The translations under genes and the position numbers were made by a program. A model generated the notes under the pieces. That model had not been told where the DNA came from. It was given only the letters and a program-made list of their open reading frames with translations, and ran no database searches. Source: Nitrospirota bacterium (GTDB lineage Bacteria > Nitrospirota > UBA9217). From it: a DNA stretch of 64,000 bases. The stretch covers positions 132,184 to 196,183 of the forward strand of contig CAVUHW010000018.1 of assembly GCA_963741205.1 (NCBI GenBank). The letters run 5' to 3'. Shown one piece after another: positions 51,969 to 61,410 of the stretch; position 1 is the first letter of the stretch, and every line of letters starts with the position of its first letter.

Positions 51969-54694
51969 ATGCCCGAACAGCAGCAACGGTACCCACAAGA
52001 CCATCTACCTCAAGGACTACCGTCCTCCCGACTATCTCGTCGAAACGGTGATGCTCGAGTTCGATCTCGATGAAACGCGGACGCGCGTCAAATCGCTCCT
52101 GACCGTGGTCTGCAATCACGACCGCTGCGAAGGCATTCACCCCTTCGTCCTGAACGGCAACGGCTTGAAGCTCCTGGCGATCAGCCTGGACGGCAGGCCT
52201 CTCGCGCCAGGCGATTACCGGCTCGATGCCGAGACGCTCACGCTCTTGCCGGTCCCCGACCGCTTCGCCCTTGAACTCGTCACCGAGATCAACCCCTCGG
52301 CGAACACGGAACTCTCCGGCCTCTACCTCTCGGGCGGAAACTTCTGCACCCAGTGCGAAGCCGAGGGGTTTCGCAGGATCACCTATTACCCGGATCGTCC
52401 CGACGTCCTGGCGCGGTTCTTCACGACCATCATCGCGGACAGAAAACGATTCCCCGTGCTGCTCTCGAACGGGAACCTGATCGGCAAGGGCGAACTCGCG
52501 GGAGAAAAACATTTCGCCAAATGGCACGACCCCTTCCCCAAGCCCGCCTACCTCTTCGCGCTCGTAGGCGGGGACCTCGCGCGCATCCGGGACACCTTCA
52601 CGACCATGTCGGGAAAAACCGTGGACTTGAGCGTCTACGTCCAGCATCACAACAAGGACAAGTGCGGCCACGCCATGGAGTCCCTGAAACTGGCCATGAA
52701 ATGGGACGAGGAAGCCTACGGCAGGGAATACGACCTCGACACCTTCATGATCGTGGCCGTGGACGACTTCAACATGGGGGCCATGGAGAACAAGGGCCTG
52801 AATGTCTTCAACTCCAAGTACGTGCTTGCCAGGCCGGAGACCGCCACGGACGCCGACTTCCAGGGCATCATGGGCGTGGTGGGCCACGAGTACTTTCACA
52901 ACTGGTCCGGCGACCGCGTTACCTGCAGGGACTGGTTCCAGCTCTCTCTCAAGGAAGGCTTTACCGTGTTCCGGGACCAGCAGTTCATGGAAGACATGAC
53001 CTCGGCCGGCGTGAAGCGCATCAGCGACGTCGCCGTCCTCCGCACCCATCAGTTTCGCGAGGACGCGGGGCCGCTGGCGCATCCGGTACGGCCCGAGTCG
53101 TACGTGGAGATCAACAACTTCTACACCCTCACGGTCTACAACAAAGGCGCCGAGGTGATCCGCATGATGCGGGCCCTGCTCGGGCCTGCGCGCTTCAGAA
53201 AGGGAACGGACCTTTACTTTTCACGCCATGACGGACAGGCGGTCACGACCGATGACTTCGTGCGGGCCATGGAAGACGCGAACGGGGCCGACCTCTCGCA
53301 GTTCAAGCTGTGGTACTCCCAGGCAGGAACTCCCGAGCTGCAGGTCAGCCGTTCCTATGATCCGCAAGCCATGAGCTATACTCTGACCTTCAAACAGACC
53401 TGTCCGCCGACGCCGGGCCAGCCGGAGAAAAAACCGATGCACATCCCCGTGGCGGTGGGGCTCTTGGGCAAGGACGGGAAGGACATGGCGCAAAGCTCAT
53501 TGACCCATCCCCACCCTGGCCCTCCCCTTGAAGGGGAGGGTACTGAAAGGCTCCTCCCCCTTCAAGGGGGAGGTTGGGAGGGGGAGGGGTTTAACAGGAC
53601 GTGGGTCCTCGAACTGAGAAAACCGGAGGAGACCTTCGTCTTCACCGATGTGCCGCACGAGCCCGTGCCCTCGCTCCTCAGGCATTTCTCGGCGCCGGTG
53701 AAAGTGAAGTGCGATCTCACGGACGACGAACGGTTGTTCCTCATGGCCAATGACAGCGACGAGTTCAACCGCTGGGACGCGGGCCAGCAGCTCGCGGTCA
53801 AGCTCATCCTGGGTCTCATCTCGGAGCTCCGGCAGGGCAGGCCGCTTACGCTCGACCGCTCGTTTACCGCCGCGTTCAAGAAGACGCTCATAAGCCCGAT
53901 GGAGGACAAGGCCTTTCAGGCCTTTGCCCTTTCGCTCCCCGCGGAGACCTATCTTGCCGACTTCATGGAGGTGATCGACCCCGGGGCCATCCATGAAGCG
54001 CGCTCGTTCGTACAAAAGACCCTTGCCGCGGAACTCAAGGATACCTTCCTCGGCCTCTATGACGCCAACCGGGAAACCGGGCCGTACACGCATCGACCAG
54101 GCCTCCGTCGGCAGGCGGAGCCTTAAAAACACCTGTCTCGCCTACCTCATGGAGCTGGACGAGCCCGGCGTGAGAAAGCTCTGCGTGGAACAATACCGTA
54201 CCTCGGCGAACATGACCGATGTGATTGCAAGCCTTGCGAACCTGGCGAACACCGACTGCCCGGAGCGGCATGAGGCGCTTGCCTCGTTTTATGAGAAATG
54301 GAAAAACGATCCGCTCGTCATGGACAAGTGGCTTTCCATCCAGGCCATGTCGCGCCTGCCCGATACGCTGGCGAAGGTCAAGGCGCTCACGCGCCACCCC
54401 GTCTTCAATATCAAAAACCCCAACAAGGTCCGCGCCCTGATCGCCGCATTTTCGTCCAATGCCGCGCGGTTCCACGACCCTTCCGGGGCGGGATATGAGT
54501 TTCTGGCGGATTACGTCGTGCTCCTGGACCCCATGAACCCCCAGATCGCTTCGCGCCTGGTCTTATCCTTTGCAATGTGGAAACGGTACGACGAGACCCG
54601 GAAGGCCCTCATGAAAGCTCAATTGGAGCGGATACTGCACATGCCGAAGCTCTCCCGGGATGTCCATGAGATTGTTGCAAAGAGCCTCGCGTAA
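51969..54694 (+). CDS. pepN: Aminopeptidase N (frameshifts at start and near 54090)
   Basis: IYLKDYRPP, TQCEAEGFR, GAMENK, HEYFH...LKEG, NPNKVRAL. Confidence 0.96.
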
Positions 54695-54764
54695 TAGCCC
54701 CCTGTTAAGCCGGAGTTACCGCGCAATCTCGATTCAAAGCAGGCGCGTTGAAGCGCTCTCATCT

Positions 54765-55277
54765 TCATCGCCACGTGTTCTCGCGGACCCGCGATGCATC
54801 GAACCGGTCCGGCGTTTCCTTCACTTCAGCCGGGAAACCGAGCGGGACCAGCGAGAAGGGCACGATGTGGTCCGGCAGCTTGAGGAGCCTCCGGAAATTC
54901 TGGACCCTATCCTCGGTCGGATAGACCCCGCACCATACGCCGCCGAGCCCCAGAGCGTGGGCGGCCAGCAGAAGGTTCTCCGTCGCTGCCGCGCAGTCAA
55001 GGACCCAGTACCCCCTGTGCCGCTCGAGCGTCAGGTCGCCGCAGACGAGGACGGCGGCGCGAGCGTGTTTCAGCATGGCCGAATAGGGATGAAACTTCGG
55101 AATCTCGTCGAGGACGGCTCGCTCCGTCAGTACCATGAAGTGCCAGGGCCGCTCATTGCCGGCCGAAGGCGCGCTCATCGCGGCCCTCAGGAGCTCGTGG
55201 AGGTCCTCGCGCGATACCGGCTTCGACGTATAAAGCCGCACGCTGCGGCGTGAAAAGATGACTTCAAGGGCATTCAT
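54765..55277 (-). CDS. Nitroreductase family protein
   Basis: RRSVRLY, APSAGNERPW, ENLLLAAHALGLGGVW. Confidence 0.92.
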   Translation of the reverse strand: MNALEVIFSRRSVRLYTSKPVSREDLHELLRAAMSAPSAGNERPWHFMVLTERAVLDEIPKFHPYSAMLKHARAAVLVCGDLTLERHRGYWVLDCAAATENLLLAAHALGLGGVWCGVYPTEDRVQNFRRLLKLPDHIVPFSLVPLGFPAEVKETPDRFDASRVRENTWR

Positions 55278-55294
55278 AGGTCCACACCCCCCGC

Positions 55295-55407
55295 TGTCAT
55301 ACCCGCGAAAGCGGGTATCCATTGGCTCTTACCCACAATAATCTTAAAATAGATTCCTGCTTTCGTACCCTGCTCTTGCGAAAGCGCGGGCACAGGCAGG
55401 AATGACA
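55295..55407. repeat. REP doublet with nested short element (55366-55396)
   Basis: TGTCATACCCGCGAAAGCGGGTATCCA ... TAGATTCCTGCTTTCG[TACCCTGC...GCGCGGGCACAG]GCAGGAATGACA. Confidence 0.8.
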
Positions 55408-55457
55408 AAAAAGATCCGCTTATTATCATAAATTTACCCAAACGACGCGACGTCTCG

Positions 55458-56420
55458 TCACGTTCCGTACTCCCGCGCCATTTCTTCAATTCCCTGCGAC
55501 AAGGTGAATTCCGGCTTCCAATGTAAAAGACGCTGCGCTTTGCCGTTGTCGAACAACAAGTCATTCGTAACATACCGGATGTAGGTGCTGAGGTCGAGCC
55601 TGGAAGCAAACAGTCCCGACACGATATCGAAGAACAAGGCCGGTGCGCCTAACATAAGAGGAGGGAGGGAAAGAATCCTTAGCGATACGCCGAGTGTGTC
55701 CGCTATGGCATGAAGGAAGTCCGACCAACTGTTGCCCGCTCCATCGGTCAGGTTGAATACCTGGCCTGCGGCGGCGGGCTCGATGCCGGCGAGATACACA
55801 GCGCGCGCAAGGTCCTTGACATAAATGAACGGGGCAACGGCGGTGCCTCTGCCAATAAAGGGGAAACCGATGGGACCGAACCTTTTGACGGTCCTCATGA
55901 GGTTCCCGAGGTGGCGGGACCCTGGGCCGTAGACCACGCCGGGCCTGATCGCGACGTACTCCGTGCCGCGCGTCCCTTCGGAAAGGAGCTGCTCGCACCG
56001 CTTTTTGTACGACGTGTACAGATCGCCGGGCACGGACCGTGGCAGGGTCTCTTCCGTCGCCGGCGTCACCGAAGGGATCCCTGAGACGGTCAGTGAGCTG
56101 ATGAATACGATCCGCCTAACCCCTGATTTTCCGAGGCGCTCGATCACGCGTTCCACGAGTTCCACATTCTTTTCAGCTGCGCGGCGAGACGTGTTCCTGA
56201 GCTCTCCGATATGGTAAAAAACCTCCATCCCGTCCATGGCGTCGAGGACCGAGTCGGGGTCCTTCAGGTCGCCGTGAAAGAGGGAGACACCCTTGCCTTC
56301 AAAACGCGCAGGGACATCCGGCCTCCTCGAAAAAAGCCGGACGCTGTGCCCGTTTTCCACAAGGAGGTCGACGACATGACTTCCGATGAACCCCGTGCCG
56401 CCGGTGACCAGCGCTTTCAT
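55458..56420 (-). CDS. NAD-dependent epimerase/dehydratase (extended SDR)
   Basis: TGGTGFIG, ISS, YTSYK, RPGVVYGP. Confidence 0.9.
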   Translation of the reverse strand: MKALVTGGTGFIGSHVVDLLVENGHSVRLFSRRPDVPARFEGKGVSLFHGDLKDPDSVLDAMDGMEVFYHIGELRNTSRRAAEKNVELVERVIERLGKSGVRRIVFISSLTVSGIPSVTPATEETLPRSVPGDLYTSYKKRCEQLLSEGTRGTEYVAIRPGVVYGPGSRHLGNLMRTVKRFGPIGFPFIGRGTAVAPFIYVKDLARAVYLAGIEPAAAGQVFNLTDGAGNSWSDFLHAIADTLGVSLRILSLPPLMLGAPALFFDIVSGLFASRLDLSTYIRYVTNDLLFDNGKAQRLLHWKPEFTLSQGIEEMAREYGT

Positions 56421-56481
56421 GGGAAACCTCGATACTGGATTCTGAATTGCGGTTGATTAATGCAGGTTGCGCGGTATCGTT

Positions 56482-57525
56482 TCACGCTTCAATAAAACAC
56501 TGCGGGTCCTCGGCGAGAAAATCGTCCTGCCCCCGGGAAAGGGACCAGGCGTAAGCGATGGCCCTGCACCCGCGGCAGCGCGCCCACCTCGGGCAGGCCC
56601 TGCATTTCCCCTTGTACCTGCTCCGGTCCCTGAGGGCATCGAGCACCGGCGAGGCAGACCAGATATCCCTGAGCGAGTCCCTGCGCGCGTTTCCCAGCGA
56701 TATCGGCAGCCTTCTGCAGGGCAGCACATCTCCGTCGGGAAGGATGGTCAGACCCGAGACGCCTGCCGCGCAGCCGCTCATCGCTGTGTTCCCGGCGTCG
56801 TCCTTTGAGGCGGTCTTCATGCACGACGCAACAGGGTCTCCGGTAACGATCTCGAGGCCCTTGACCTCAAGAGATAAGAGTGATTCATACAAATCCTTCA
56901 CTTCCGCCGGGGAAAGCATCCGCGAAAGCAGGGACAGTCCTTTACCGGACGGGACGAGACGGGAGAAACCGATTCTCCGCGCCCCTGCATGGGAGCCGAA
57001 GGCAATCACCTGTTTCATCGATGAGGCATTAAGATGGGAGAGTGTGGCGTTGAGCGTAACCGCGAGCCCGGCGTCAACGAGGCGTTTAATGCCGGCAGCC
57101 GATGCGGCGAAGCTCCCCTTGCCGCGAATGGAATCATGGACCTCTTCCGGTCCCTCGATGCTTACCTGCACGCCCTTAACGCCGAGCTCCGCAAGCCGTC
57201 GTGCGCGCTCCCTGTCAACGAGCGTCCCGTTGGTGAGCAGATAGATGTCGAAGCCCCGCCGGGAGATCTCGCCGAGAATTTCAAAAAGGTCGGGCCTCAG
57301 AAAGGGCTCCCCCCCGGTCATATTCATACTCCGGGAGAATACAATGTCATAGGCCCCCGACCAGTCATCGATCATGTCCGATACTTCAGCAATGACGGTC
57401 TTTATTTCCGGCAGGGACATCTCATCCGTGCCGCGCTCACCCTGGTAGCAGTGGCTGCACCGGAGATTGCAGGCTTCGGTCAAGTGCCATTGGATAAAAA
57501 ATTCAAAGGGCTTGTGAGTGGACAT
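56482..57525 (-). CDS. Radical SAM/SPASM enzyme, putative peptide maturase
   Basis: CNLRCSHC (CxxxCxxC), TGGEP, TNG; SPASM CAAG...DGDVLPC...CRAC...CRGCRA...DPQC; intact 347 aa. Confidence 0.93.
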   Translation of the reverse strand: MSTHKPFEFFIQWHLTEACNLRCSHCYQGERGTDEMSLPEIKTVIAEVSDMIDDWSGAYDIVFSRSMNMTGGEPFLRPDLFEILGEISRRGFDIYLLTNGTLVDRERARRLAELGVKGVQVSIEGPEEVHDSIRGKGSFAASAAGIKRLVDAGLAVTLNATLSHLNASSMKQVIAFGSHAGARRIGFSRLVPSGKGLSLLSRMLSPAEVKDLYESLLSLEVKGLEIVTGDPVASCMKTASKDDAGNTAMSGCAAGVSGLTILPDGDVLPCRRLPISLGNARRDSLRDIWSASPVLDALRDRSRYKGKCRACPRWARCRGCRAIAYAWSLSRGQDDFLAEDPQCFIEA

Positions 57526-57571
57526 AAGAGTGAAGGGAGAAAAATGAATTTGATTCGTAACGGGCTAAAAG

Positions 57572-57631
57572 AGGCGGACATGACGAAAGACATGACTACG
57601 CAGCAACGCGTTTGTTCCGCCATATCCGCCT
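57572..57631 (-). terminator. 17-bp stem-loop followed by CUUUU between peptide and maturase (attenuator/stabiliser)
   Basis: mRNA AGGCGGAUAUGGCGGAA pairs with UUUCGUCAUGUCCGCCU (with G-U pairs), then CUUUU. Confidence 0.65.
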
Positions 57632-57642
57632 GTTCCGGTTTC

Positions 57643-57658
57643 GTTGCTGACCAGCAAC
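57643..57658 (-). promoter_or_regulatory. Bacterial SECIS element
   Basis: GUUGCU-GGUC-AGCAAC begins 11 nt after the UGA at 57672-57670; closely resembles the E. coli fdhF SECIS GGUUGCAGGUCUGCACC. Confidence 0.75.
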
Positions 57659-57660
57659 TT

Positions 57661-57783
57661 TTAGGCCTTTCAGCCTTTTCACTTGTGACATACTGTGCCA
57701 GGATTCTTCTTTGCCAGCTCTTTCATAGTATTCCAGTATGCCGACTCTTTGACAAGAGTTTCCCTGCTCGCTGTCTTTTTCAT
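57661..57783 (-). CDS. 40-aa putative selenocysteine-containing RiPP precursor MKKTASRETLVKESAYWNTMKELAKKNPGTVCHKUKGUKA
   Basis: SD AAGGAGGTG; TGA at codons 35 and 38 spaced with Cys32 as CxxUxxU; TAA at 57663-57661; SECIS-like hairpin downstream; adjacent rSAM/SPASM gene. Confidence 0.8.
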
Positions 57784-57825
57784 CCCGTATTCACCTCCTT
57801 TCCGGTTCGTACAAGGTTAAGCATA

Positions 57826-57924
57826 TCACAAAAAAGCCCTCAAGCGGCGCTGTTCGGCCGCGGCGCGGCTTATCTCCTCGAGGTCCGCGAAGACGCGGAC
57901 CTCTGTGTTTCCGAAGACATTCAT
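57826..57924 (-). pseudogene. pgl: Truncated 6-phosphogluconolactonase N-terminus
   Basis: [24 protein letters not shown] overlaps the zwf stop, then terminates after 32 codons. Confidence 0.6.
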
Positions 57925-59495
57925 AACGGCCTCCAGGCCCGGCCGTCCTTGCTGATCAGACGCATGGCCGAGTCCGGGCCGTCCGTGCCGGCGGCATACA
58001 GCGCGAGCGGGGCGCCTTTGCCCGATTCGTATGCGTCGAGAGCGGGGGTAAGCGCCGACCAGGCAAGCTCCACGCTGTCTTCCCGCATGAACAGCATGTG
58101 GTCGCCGAGCATGCAGTCCAAAAGCACCCATTCATAGGCATCGAGCAGGACCCCGCGCGGATAGGAATAGGTCATCTCCACGGGATTCAGGCAGACCTTC
58201 GTGCCCGGCTGCTTGGTCTGGAAGGTAAGATTCATGCCTTCGTCGGGCTGGATCTTCAAAACGACCGTGTTCGCCTCGATGGGGCCGCCGACGGAATCGG
58301 GAAACATGGAGTGCGGGACTTCCTTGAAATGAATGGAGATCTCCGTCTTCCGGCTTGAAAGCCGTTTGCCCGAACGAAGATAGAAGGGCACGCCGTGCCA
58401 GCGCCAGTTGTCGACGAACACTTTCATCGCGGCATAGGTCGGCGTCATTGACCCCGGGGCTACACCCGCCTCTTCCCGGTACCCGGGGACATCCTGCCCG
58501 TCGAGCTTCCCCTTTGCATACTGCCCGAACACCATGTGATCGTCGAGGTGAGTCCGGGGAAATTCGCCGGAGGGAGCGAAGGACCTTTGCCTTTTCGTCC
58601 TGCACCCGGTCGGCGATGAACAGCGCGGGCGGCTCCATGGCTGTGAGACAGAGCAGTTGGAACACGTGGTTCTGGAACATGTCGCGGACCACTCCCGCTG
58701 CTTCATAGTAGCCCGCCCGGTGTTCGATGCCGAGGGTCTCGACGGCGGTGATCTGGACGTGATCGACGTACCGCCGGTTCCAGAGCGGCTCGAAAATGGA
58801 GTTCGCGAAACGGAACATGAGGATGTTCTGCACGGTTTCCTTGGCAAGGTAATGGTCGATGCGGAAAATCTGGCTTTCCTTATAGTAGGTATGCACGAGT
58901 TTATTCAGCTTCCGGGCCGAGGCGAGGTCGTGGCCGAAGGGTTTTTCGATCACGACATGGCTGCAGCCCTTGTCCTCGCGCTGCAGACCCGCGGCCCCGA
59001 TGTTGTGGACCACCTTTTCGAACACCGTGGGCGGGATGGCCAGATAAAAAATGCGGTTCCCGCGCGTCTCGTGCCTGGCCTCGAGCTTCGGCAGGATGTC
59101 CGCTGAGGTCGACGGTATAGGACTTCGGGATCTTCGTAGTCGAAGGTGGAGTAATAGAGGCGGGTCGCCAGCTTGTCCCAGACGGCCTTGTCGAACTCGA
59201 GCGGGAACGCAGACTGGATGGCTTCCTGCATGGATGCGCGGAACTGTTCCGTCGTCATTTCGACGCGGCTCGTGCCGAGAATGAAGAACTGCTCCGCCAG
59301 CATCCTGTTCTTGTAAAGACGGTACAGCGAAGGAAGGAGCTTCCGGCGCGTGAGGTCGCCCGATGCGCCGAAAATGATCAGGGCGGCCGGCCGGGGAACT
59401 TCGATTTCGCAGTTCTCCACCCTGTGGTACTCCGGAGACAAACCGGCTGCCGCCGTCGCCCGCTCCCTGTTCTCCAGAACAAGTGGATCATCCAT
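57921..59495 (-). CDS. zwf: Glucose-6-phosphate dehydrogenase (frameshifted)
   Basis: [40 protein letters not shown]. Confidence 0.95.
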
Positions 59496-60379
59496 GGGCT
59501 GTCTTCCTTTTCTCCGGCGCTATCAGGGCGTTCCAGTCGAGAGAAAACTTTTCCATGCCCTTGTCCGTGAGGTCGTGGCGGATATCGTAGTCCTGCCATT
59601 TTTTTGCGAGCTCGATCATCCGGTAGGGGATCGGCCTCAGCCCCTTCGTTTCGTAGGTAAATTCGGGATCCGGAACCGGCATCCCCTGCGTGCCCCATGT
59701 ATTCAGGATCTCGTAGGGAGCGGTGATGATATCGGAACCGAGCCTGAGCGCATAGAGAAGATGATCGAGGGACCTCACGCTCGCGGTCAGGACTTCCACG
59801 TGGCCGTCGCCGTTCCGGTACATCTTGATGATGTTGGCGATCACGTCCATACCGTTCTCACCCCGGTCATCGAGCCTGCCGATGAAGGGCGAAACGTAGA
59901 CCTGCCCTTTCCTCGCGCCCCGCGTCGCGGCGTACACGGCCGCGGCCTGTTCCTGGGAAAAGCAGAGCGTCATGTTCACGCGCATTCCCTCCCCCACCGC
60001 GCTCTCCGCGGCCTTGAGCCCTTCGCGCGACGTCGGGAACTTCACGTGCGCGTTCGGGATCCAGGAGTACATTTCCTTTGCCTGCTTGAGCATCGTCTCC
60101 GCCGTGGTCGCGGCGTCGGCATATACCTCCACGGACACCGATCCTTTGGGGATCAGGCTGCTGATGGTCGTGACTACGTTGCGATAAAAATCGAGGATTT
60201 CACTTCGCGCTGAATTTTTCCCCCTTCTCCAGGCGCGAACGCGCTTCGGGATTCTTGGAGATCAGCGTAGGATTCGTAGTCTGCCCGTCGAGGAACCCGA
60301 GGAGCTTTATAAGCTTTCGCGTTTCCTCCTGATTGCCGCCGTCCAGAAAGATTCTGGTTTTGAGATTGGCTGGTTTCAT
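59488..60379 (-). CDS. tal: Transaldolase family protein (frameshifted)
   Basis: IFLDGG, GQTTNPTL, SVEV, VKFP, VNMTLCFS, SPFIGRLDD. Confidence 0.9.
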
Positions 60380-60493
60380 ATTATAACACCTCCTTCAGAT
60401 GATCATGAAGGACGATGTGACGAGTTCGCGTCGTTGCGAGGTACGACGTGACGCAAGGTACATTCGTCAACCTCGTCCTCGTCACCCGTCACC

Positions 60494-61410
60494 TCACCTC
60501 ACGTCCTTCATCCTCTCCTTCGCCTCATGTCCTCCGAACTGGTTGCGGAGCGCCGAGATGATCTTTCCCGTGTAGCTCGGATTCTTCTGGGACTGGATGC
60601 GAAATTCGAGCGACCCCTCGATTATCGGCGCCGGGACCCCCAGTTCTTTCGCCGCTTCAACGGTCCACAGCCCTTCCCCGCTCTGCGCGTGCGGAGCCGG
60701 ATATGCCGGAAAGGTCCCGTCCATACTGTTCATAGGCGTTCTTGAGCCAGCCGACGAGCCTCGACTCGATCACGCTCCGGTGATTATAGAGGTCCGCGAT
60801 CTCGCAAGGTCCAGGTCGTAAACGCGAGGCCTTCATGACCGCGAACCCTTCGGCAAGGGCCTGCATCATGCCGTATTCGATCCCGTTATGGACCATCTTT
60901 ACGAAATGCCCGGCCCCGGATTTTCCCAAGTGACGGTATCCGTTTTCAACCGAGAGGTCGCGAAAGAGACTGCTCGAAATGGCTGAACACCTCCTTGCTG
61001 CCGCCGACCATGATACAAGCCCCGTTCCGGGCGCCGCCGGGGCCTCCGCTCACACCTGCGTCCAGAAAATCAATGCCCCGGGCTTCGAGCTCCTTCGCCC
61101 GCCGCATCGATTCCTTGTAGAGCGAGTTCCCGCCATCGATTACCGTATCGCCTTTTGCGAGGAGCTGCGCGAGGTCTTTCAAGACCGCATCGACTGCATG
61201 GTACGGGACCATGATCCAGACAAGCCGCGGGGCCGGCAGCGAAGCCACCAGTGCGTGCAATGAATTCGCGACGCTTGCGCGCCTTTCCGCGCAAGAGAAT
61301 CGACGGCATCCTTGCTCCGGTCGAATACGATGACATGGTGGTCTTTCTCCAGACATTCGTTCCACCATATTGGATCCCATCTTCCCCAAGCCGATGTAGC
61401 CGAGTTTCAT
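60494..61410 (-). CDS. gnd: Decarboxylating 6-phosphogluconate dehydrogenase (short YqeC type, frameshifted)
   Basis: GLGKMG, IDGGNS, GVSGG, GHFVKMVHNGIEYG, LRNQFGGH. Confidence 0.93.

Follow-up and report, generated by a model that had tools for sequence, protein, structure and literature searches.

The closest described counterpart of the genes considered here is SbtA/SbtM (TIGR04081 and TIGR04082), in which, according to PMC11002830 and PMC13188914, a small precursor with an in-frame UGA and up to two selenocysteines (Sec, U) has a Sec insertion sequence (SECIS) right behind it, and an adjacent radical S-adenosylmethionine (SAM)/SPASM enzyme acts on its Cys or Sec. The "selenobacteriocin" of TIGR04081 is the sole radical SAM-linked peptide in Table 1 of a 2026 catalogue of 119 prokaryotic selenoprotein families (PMC13188914). 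A locus that resembles SbtA/SbtM in these respects lies on the minus strand of a 64,000-nucleotide (nt) stretch of contig CAVUHW010000018.1 from a Nitrospirota bacterium (assembly GCA_963741205.1); this whole stretch is referred to as the window. It holds a gene, not annotated before this analysis, for a peptide of 40 residues with a C-terminal C-x-x-U-x-x-U motif and, 135 nt beyond its stop codon, the open reading frame (ORF) of a radical SAM/SPASM enzyme. The pair is real, conserved and apparently undescribed. The explanation that is on balance favoured is a two-Sec peptide gene whose product is the dedicated partner, and likely the substrate, of the adjacent SPASM enzyme, which would install C-Se or C-S crosslinks. 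A sequence-only reading of the window had proposed a Sec-containing CxxUxxU peptide paired with such an enzyme and had placed the Shine-Dalgarno (SD) site, the ORF, the TGA codons in register with Cys32, the hairpin, the 135-nt gap and the radical SAM, short-chain dehydrogenase/reductase (SDR) and nitroreductase genes. These coordinates were all confirmed, and the comparative evidence presented below indicates that the UGAs, the SECIS and the pairing are conserved over two phyla.

Judged from its sequences, the pair is set apart from SbtA/SbtM by its peptide family, the architecture of its enzyme, its obligate Sec and the layout of its cassette. No TIGR04081 model matches the peptide (0 of the 25 aligned members even at E ≤ 10), whose motif C-x-x-U-x-x-U-K stands at the extreme C-terminus, whereas SbtA, as described in reviews, has SGUG. 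The enzyme reaches 147.9 bits against the SbtM model TIGR04082, whose cut-off is 350, over model positions 199-516 of 516 only, and is without the N-terminal ~200 residues of that model; the sequence-only reading had likewise set the family apart from TIGR04081/04082. The present family also differs from SbtA in having yielded no Cys forms.

The peptide is also like four families of the catalogue (UXX-star families 1 and 2, KCU-star and UXPK-star), in which Sec stands two or three residues from the C-terminus and the SECIS lies in the 3' untranslated region; unlike the present peptide, however, these have the listed motifs UxxT, GxGU, CU and UxxG, and none is listed with a SPASM partner in Table 1 of PMC13188914. 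The CxxUxxU peptide is absent from that table, it matches no NCBIfam or Pfam model, and NF041114, NF041211, NF033934 and NF047649 did not turn up in its NCBIfam scans. No description of the peptide family was found in the literature, the supplementary family lists (PMC13326102; Haft & Tolstoy 2025) lying outside that coverage.

Reading through two UGA codons

The peptide frame of the window runs for 34 sense codons, ending in TGT CAC AAG, and continues as TGA, AAA GGC, TGA, AAG GCC and TAA. Both TGAs are in register with Cys32, giving the C-x-x-U-x-x-U terminus when TGA is read as Sec. The argument that these codons are read through comes from orthologues of the enzyme, which were collected from relatives of the window's genome (27 loci, 54-100% identity), from genome contigs with one genome per species (31 loci of at least 45% identity, 33 loci examined, titled Nitrospirota, Syntrophorhabdus, Syntrophales, Desulfobulbales, Syntrophobacterales and similar), and from metagenomes (80 loci, of which 10 stop short of the enzyme N-terminus or the upstream DNA and 70 were assessable). 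A small ORF stands upstream of the enzyme in 26/27 relatives, 29/31 genome-contig orthologues and 61/70 assessable metagenome loci, and the peptide-bearing loci keep both TGAs and a hairpin with compensatory stem changes. Among the nine metagenome loci without a standard peptide, the second Sec position is TAA in one (L155) and the second UGA is displaced or missing in two others (L143, L157). In metagenome locus L122 the peptide gene looks decayed, with its leader largely deleted.

A peptide profile built from 25 sequences (alignment A1), with C at both Sec positions, was run against all six frames with stops read through, and matched 72/401 sampled genomes of the window's phylum and 26/401 of that of Syntrophorhabdus. 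Every match that spans positions 35 and 38 has two TGAs; three rows with a single TGA are alignments that end at position 36-37, and the one checked (L103) has both. The sequence-only reading had expected Cys and TGA to interchange at positions 32, 35 and 38, and this expectation failed: position 32 is Cys in all homologues, positions 35 and 38 are TGA in every one, and no Cys was found at 35 or 38 among the 98 positive genomes or the genome-contig and metagenome loci examined. With C in both places of the profile, a Cys form would have obtained a score no lower than that of a TGA form. The customary sign of a selenoprotein, Cys homologues aligned to the UGA, is thus not seen here, and the lack of any Cys form points to a chemistry that needs selenium.

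The other sign, a UGA that is kept together with coding conservation beyond it, is found in relatives, genome contigs and metagenomes over two phyla. M1, E13, W17, C32, U35, U38 and K39 are invariant in A1, and a conserved N-terminal motif, K-E-A-x-[FYL]-[WF], stands 15 residues from the core; a third peptide type, known from metagenomes only, has F in place of W17. A census of 114 unique gene ends, selected for Cys32 and both TGAs, shows Lys36 as AAG (89) or AAA (17), position 37 as Gly by four codons or Ser by AGC, AGT or TCC, and an invariant Lys39 (AAG 88, AAA 26) that is followed by one to three further residues and then by TAA (54), TGA (36) or TAG (24). Variation among homologues is concentrated at third codon positions, and the distance after the true stop varies while the frame through the TGAs does not. 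An SD site like AGGAGGTGA lies 5-8 nt before the start in nearly all homologues. Comparison thus shows both UGAs to be read as Sec with one SECIS behind the stop codon, and the small ORF is very probably a translated two-Sec gene linked to the enzyme. The TGAs are not removed by reads, since a DNA contig (run X1) spanning 57523-57835 and two contigs from RNA libraries (X19, X20) keep both.

The SECIS hairpin and the selenocysteine machinery

The hairpin behind the peptide gene was aligned in 39 sequences as a six-pair stem (alignment A2). This stem is paired in 91.5% of cells, 0/500 shuffles reach its covariation score, and three of the six pairs change on both sides (G-C/A-U, U-A/C-G, U-A/C-G/A-U). 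The 20 "unpaired" cells at the innermost pair result from an alignment column split by one-base loop insertions. When hairpins were located by script, a stem with a GGU loop was found in 61 of 63 unique sequences, the remaining two having UGGAU instead. Of the 61 loops, 38 are GGUC and the rest GUC or GUU closed by G-C. Stem variants include GUUGCU/AGCAAC, GUUGCC/GGCAAC, GUUGCA/UGCAAC, GCCGCC/GGCGGC, GCUGCC/GGCAGC, AUUGCC/GGCAAU and GUCGCC/GGCGAC.

The position of the hairpin also agrees with the bacterial SECIS consensus, which, as given in PMC13188914, calls for a small apical loop that opens with G followed by G or U and lies 16-37 nt from the UGA. Counted from the U of the second UGA, the apical loop starts at 18-21 nt in 52/61 hairpins; from the first UGA the distance is 9 nt more, 27-30 nt in most loci, so that both UGAs fall within the stated range. 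In the window the stem starts two bases after the peptide stop and 11 nt after the second UGA. A scan of 54000-59000 against Rfam at E ≤ 10 returned chance matches only; CsrB, which came out best, had 19 bits where its gathering score is 71.

The genome of the window, a metagenome-assembled genome (MAG) that is 84% complete, has the machinery that the sequence-only reading had asked to see confirmed: selA (531 bits), selB (372 bits), selD (352 bits) and two tRNA-Sec genes with anticodon TCA. Its selD (L109, contig C14) is itself a selenoprotein gene, with an in-frame TGA in SSCAG-U-ASKF and a GGUC-type hairpin ~29 nt after that UGA. Across family f1, selB was detected in 53/64 genomes, some of them peptide-negative; Sec use is near-universal in this family, and the peptide-enzyme module is accessory, occurring in 37/64 genomes. 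Loss of the Sec trait as the cause of peptide absence in relatives was rejected, because selB is also present in peptide-negative genomes.

Pairing of the peptide with one SPASM enzyme

The maximum-likelihood tree of 123 enzyme sequences contains one clade of 119 (SH-aLRT 97), of which 115 members could be assessed for a peptide, and 103 of these have it directly upstream. Peptide types track enzyme subclades: type A has K-E-A-A-[YF]-W ... C-[HR]-K-U-K-[GS]-U-K-S, type B has R-R-Q-E-A-K-F-W ... C-L-K-U-K-[KS]-U-K-x-x, and type C has K-E-A-R-F-F ... C-L-A-U-K-S-U-K-G-K. A search of 37 family f1 genomes for both genes found both in 26, the enzyme only in one, neither in 10 and the peptide only in none; these counts are descriptive and not statistics, as kin are not independent. 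By this comparison the peptide is shown to co-evolve with one SPASM enzyme, and there is a good probability that it is the substrate of that enzyme.

Clustering of the ORFs around 23 loci revealed no conserved neighbour besides the enzyme. The ten downstream genes scanned are heterogeneous, comprising an M20 peptidase, an MqnC/CofH-like radical SAM protein, a PEMT-family protein, a HAD hydrolase, an HD-domain protein, ribosomal protein S2, a pyruvate:ferredoxin oxidoreductase subunit, a multihaem cytochrome, a cytidylate-kinase-like protein and one unknown, and no leader protease or exporter is conserved among the 23 loci. The layout of a RiPP (a peptide made by the ribosome and modified after translation), with a short precursor of leader and core beside a modifying enzyme, is found here, and the protease or exporter of such systems is not. 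Since only the peptide and the enzyme are conserved together, the unit consists of two genes. SCIFF is a two-gene cassette without exporter or protease as well. A role for the SDR and the nitroreductase, which the sequence-only reading had raised, was rejected, as both occur only in the closest relatives L050 and L078 (L049 has the nitroreductase only). The module is also found in the cultured Syntrophorhabdus aromaticivorans UI (NZ_KI867150.1, peptide gene at 1460171-1460290 and enzyme gene at ~1460404-1461444), which makes its chemistry directly testable.

The radical SAM/SPASM enzyme

The enzyme carries its radical SAM motif CxxxCxxC (C19/C23/C26) ~18 residues from the protein start and a 7-Cys SPASM layout, C252-x17-C270 ... 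C308-x2-C311-x5-C317-x2-C320 ... C343. All ten Cys, three plus exactly seven, are invariant in alignment A3 of 33 orthologues and, with matches to PF04055 and PF13186, they define the radical SAM core and SPASM domain with two auxiliary clusters that characterize a maturase. No NCBIfam cut-off is reached. The best scores are those of AhbD (185.4 bits) and NirJ2 (176.7 bits), both tetrapyrrole enzymes with cut-offs of 500, and no heme-synthesis gene was found among the 10 downstream neighbours scanned. Other scores, with cut-offs in brackets, are ACGX 164 (400), GeoRSP TIGR04303 158.4 (400), StsB 113.3 (625), PapB 80.3 (340), SkfB 76 (300) and AlbA 73.6 (850).

An AlphaFold2 model of the enzyme (pLDDT 90.3, pTM 0.89) has its best Foldseek matches in the Protein Data Bank (PDB) with SuiB, SkfB, anSME, PqqE, CteB and ChlB, and a profile search of PDB sequences returned SkfB (1e-27), PqqE, CteB and anSME. 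Going by the predicted fold and the profile, every one of the closest solved structures belongs to a SPASM enzyme that modifies peptides or proteins. The match starts at residue ~12 of the enzyme and at residue ~100-113 of SkfB and CteB, indicating that the enzyme is without a RiPP recognition element (RRE) and shares its build with anSME or with the epimerases that have no RRE. No PqqD-family partner stands beside it. The sequence-only reading had noticed no RRE or PqqD, exporter or dedicated protease in the locus, and this description applies to the family.

PqqD-like small ORFs were seen only upstream of two radical SAM/SPASM paralogues (L045 and L046, 32-34% identity), which are without a CxxUxxU peptide and belong to a different radical SAM peptide system of the same phylum.

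Like anSME (Foldseek TM 0.69, E ~1e-15), which acts on the Cys of a protein or peptide, the enzyme is an RRE-less SPASM protein of similar length. The auxiliary clusters of anSME are fully ligated. Unlike anSME, which oxidises a sulfatase Cys or Ser to formylglycine, the present enzyme has no sulfatase motif or neighbour. The other likeness is to the enzymes CteB (of SCIFF), PapB, Tte1186, SkfB and CrpC, which are described as combining a radical SAM core with a 7-Cys SPASM domain and a three-Cys auxiliary cluster I. CrpC, which shows the same Cys spacing, is described with three Cys ligands for auxiliary cluster I and four for cluster II, and for PapB, too, a cluster I with three Cys is assumed, to which the chalcogen of the substrate binds (PMC13692751 and PMC10177961, respectively). 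Unlike these maturases of ranthipeptides and sactipeptides, the present enzyme has no RRE, reaches none of the family cut-offs and has a presumed natural substrate whose gene encodes Sec.

Expression signals and overlapping frames

No SD site was seen before the enzyme ATG in the window, and a second hairpin, more stable than its shuffles (fold z = −2.98), lies between the SECIS and the enzyme gene. Such a hairpin is present behind the SECIS in most type A loci; its arms read GGCRGAYAYGG / CCRTRTCYGCC and its tail is rich in T. A similar hairpin with T-tract passes a strict rule in 39/65 unique loci. Eleven of the 26 failures are explained by an enzyme coding sequence that nearly abuts the SECIS and leaves no room. 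A simple terminator scan missed the second hairpin because its loop exceeds the limit of the scan. We infer, by analogy with other precursor-peptide operons, that this hairpin may act as a leaky terminator and so maintain an excess of peptide message.

The sequence of the terminator-like arms is conserved over two phyla (the window, L097, L100, L054, L102, L095 and others), beyond what a generic terminator needs.

In 24 of 39 unique tightly spaced loci (L053, L057, L067, L072-L076 and L153-L168 among them), the frame of the enzyme lies at −1 relative to the peptide ORF and has no stop as far back as the Cys32 codon. As the TGY and TGA codons lie 9 nt apart, an ATG, GTG or TTG that overlaps Cys32, the first UGA, the second UGA or a TGA stop is in each case in the frame of the enzyme. 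Start candidates in clade B are an ATG at −31 that overlaps the Cys32 codon, and positions −22 and −13, which overlap the first and second UGA. Three of these loci (L053, L057, L067) have no start candidate after the peptide stop, so that the enzyme must start inside the peptide ORF. The RNA-library contigs X19 and X20 derive from two metatranscriptome studies and span 57639-57796 (158 nt) and 57617-57798 (182 nt). Both lie entirely on the SD, the ORF and the SECIS, and each shows five differences that leave the TGAs untouched; as contigs, which can prove neither transcript ends nor translation, they give a weak hint of a short abundant peptide transcript.

A proposed modification and its implications

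According to the favoured explanation, the N-terminal two thirds of the peptide with K-E-A-x-[FYL]-[WF] would be the recognition part and the C-terminal C-x-x-U-x-x-U-K-x(1-2) the core. The 7-Cys layout of the enzyme would leave auxiliary cluster I with only three Cys ligands, and the Cys thiolate or Sec selenolate of the core may bind its open iron, by analogy with CteB, PapB and CrpC. The 5'-deoxyadenosyl radical would then take a hydrogen from a nearby residue, and a C-Se or C-S crosslink (selenoether or thioether) could form, with the invariant Lys39, Lys34, residues 36-37 or the C-terminal residue as candidate acceptors. This last residue is always 2-3 residues after Sec38. A heterocycle of the SbtM type is a second candidate product. 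There are precedents for parts of this scheme: PapB and Tte1186 form selenoethers from synthetic Sec peptides with Se on the Fe of auxiliary cluster I, and in short peptides PapB is able to join Cys to the C-terminal residue by a crosslink (PMC10177961 and PMC12373016, respectively). The strong SD of the peptide gene, together with the terminator-like hairpin or the overlapping frames, would set the ratio of peptide to enzyme. Given that no protease, exporter or RRE accompanies the pair, the product probably stays full-length in the cell. That it carries a C-Se crosslink, judged by these analogies, is put at somewhat less than an even chance.

Several observations weigh against this explanation. 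The core has none of the Asp, Glu or Thr acceptors of known ranthipeptides, and the enzyme is without an N-terminal RRE and has its best family scores, far under the cut-offs, with AhbD and NirJ2. The first UGA is ~9 nt farther from the hairpin than the second, and at E ≤ 1e-60 selB was not detected in six MAGs (63-96% complete) that have the peptide. There are 12 enzyme loci among the 115 that have no adjacent peptide, scattered apart from one three-locus subclade; a genome that is 100% complete (G020) has the enzyme but no peptide match; and in one genome the peptide and enzyme genes are unlinked. The limit of the RNA contigs as proof of translation, given above, counts on the same side.

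If correct, the explanation would bring in a selenoprotein family overlooked by standard gene calling, which yields at most a 34-residue product, and a second natural kind of Sec precursor with a radical SAM partner, after SbtA/SbtM. Selenoether formation by such enzymes is so far described only with synthetic Sec peptides (PMC10177961), and a natural case would matter for selenium biology and for enzymatic peptide macrocyclisation. The system is also of interest for recoding, in that a single SECIS serves two UGAs spaced by 9 nt and enzyme frames begin in the Sec-coding stretch. A bolder and still tentative proposal is that the pair represents the first obligately selenium-dependent class of modified peptides, in which an RRE-less radical SAM enzyme installs natural C-Se crosslinks in a C-x-x-U-x-x-U-K core, the product is intracellular and there is no sulfur-only counterpart, and that in part of the family the translation of the enzyme is tied to Sec decoding through a frame that starts at an NUG over the Cys, Sec or stop codons.

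Alternative explanations

The peptide could instead be a functional small selenoprotein that is not crosslinked, either with a redox or metal-binding tail or as a partner that gives the enzyme ligands, electrons or selenium, for example through a Sec-ligated cluster or as a supplier of selenium for another product. With its i, i+3, i+6 spacing the core recalls Fe-S binding motifs. UxxU and CxxU are typical of redox or metal-binding selenoproteins in Table 1 of PMC13188914, the pair has no protease or exporter, and an obligate Sec with no Cys homologue suggests selenium-specific chemistry. Nevertheless, the tight one-to-one linkage and co-diversification with a SPASM enzyme of the peptide-modifying type fit an enzyme and its substrate better, and a bare metal-binding tail would have no need of a leader-like motif 15 residues from the core, rendering this alternative unlikely.

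A second alternative is that the small ORF is a regulatory leader, in which tandem Sec codons sense the supply of Sec-tRNA and SelB and set the expression of the radical SAM enzyme in the manner of the trp and his leaders. The arrangement of a short ORF with two rarely decoded codons, a hairpin and, ahead of the enzyme gene, a further hairpin of terminator-like form with a U-tract is what such a leader would look like, as is the reach of the enzyme frame back into the Sec-coding stretch in the tightly spaced loci. To our knowledge, however, leader peptides conserve only their regulatory codons, whereas here E13, W17, C32, K39 and K-E-A-x-F-W are kept at the amino-acid level over two phyla with synonymous changes. 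Inspection of the window by eye gave no alternative antiterminator pairing, the loci of clade C and many of clade A vary in layout with the peptide unchanged, and one genome has the peptide gene away from the enzyme gene; a leader function is accordingly very improbable.

That the ORF arose by chance, with ordinary TGA stops, a hairpin that is a terminator or other RNA element and conserved non-coding DNA, could appeal to the unexceptional fold of the single window sequence (91-nt UGA region against shuffles, z = −0.96), to the 34-residue limit of gene callers, whose truncated call for the window itself was the sole match of the read-through peptide among 5.8 billion protein clusters, and to the high conservation of the DNA around the TGAs, but it is already contradicted by homologue loci, hidden Markov model matches and codon data, namely third-position variation with Ser37 encoded by both AGY and TCC, a frame through both TGAs that is kept in all homologues while the spacing past the true stop varies, a strong SD at fixed distance and a separate terminator-like hairpin farther downstream, so that conservation across loci argues against chance despite the fold.

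Features of the window and minor observations

The coordinates of the pair, its signals and the two genes downstream are collected in Table 1.

Table 1. Features of the selenopeptide locus, numbered from the first letter of the window
Feature	Position	Strand	Basis
Shine-Dalgarno site of the peptide gene, AAGGAGGTG	57792..57800	-	read in the sequence
Selenopeptide gene, 40 codons + TAA (start ATG at 57783, stop TAA at 57663-57661), MKKTASRETLVKESAYWNTMKELAKKNPGTVCHK-U-KG-U-KA	57661..57783	-	translation, homologues, alignment A1
First UGA (Sec35)	57679..57681	-	TGA in all 114 unique gene ends (a set selected for it) and, independently, in every HMM match that spans it
Second UGA (Sec38)	57670..57672	-	as for Sec35
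SECIS hairpin, stem GUUGCU/AGCAAC, loop GGUC	57643..57658	-	covariation and loop rule
Terminator-like hairpin (57630-57573), arms GGCGGAUAUGGCGGAA / UUUCGUCAUGUCCGCC, with U-rich tail (57572-57566)	57566..57630	-	between peptide and radical SAM genes
Radical SAM/SPASM enzyme gene, 347 aa	56482..57525	-	Pfam PF04055 + PF13186
SDR, NAD-dependent epimerase/dehydratase family	55458..56420	-	Pfam
Nitroreductase-family gene	54765..55322	-	Pfam

Upstream of the peptide gene, a comparison of 57924-61410 (minus strand) with the relative L049 showed that zwf (59495-57924) and the two genes preceding it are each split over two or three frames. A 255-residue gene that L049 has between zwf and the peptide, which we take to be pgl, has no match in the window, where a 32-codon stub stands at 57922-57826. 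The selA of the genome is likewise in two pieces, and from these split genes it appears that the MAG probably carries indel errors. Between the SDR and nitroreductase genes (~55300-55420, minus strand) lie palindromic stretches similar to repetitive extragenic palindromes, ATTCCTGC...GCAGGAAT and GGATACCCGCTTTCGCGGGTATG, which resemble intergenic repeats in the relatives L037, L038 and L093.

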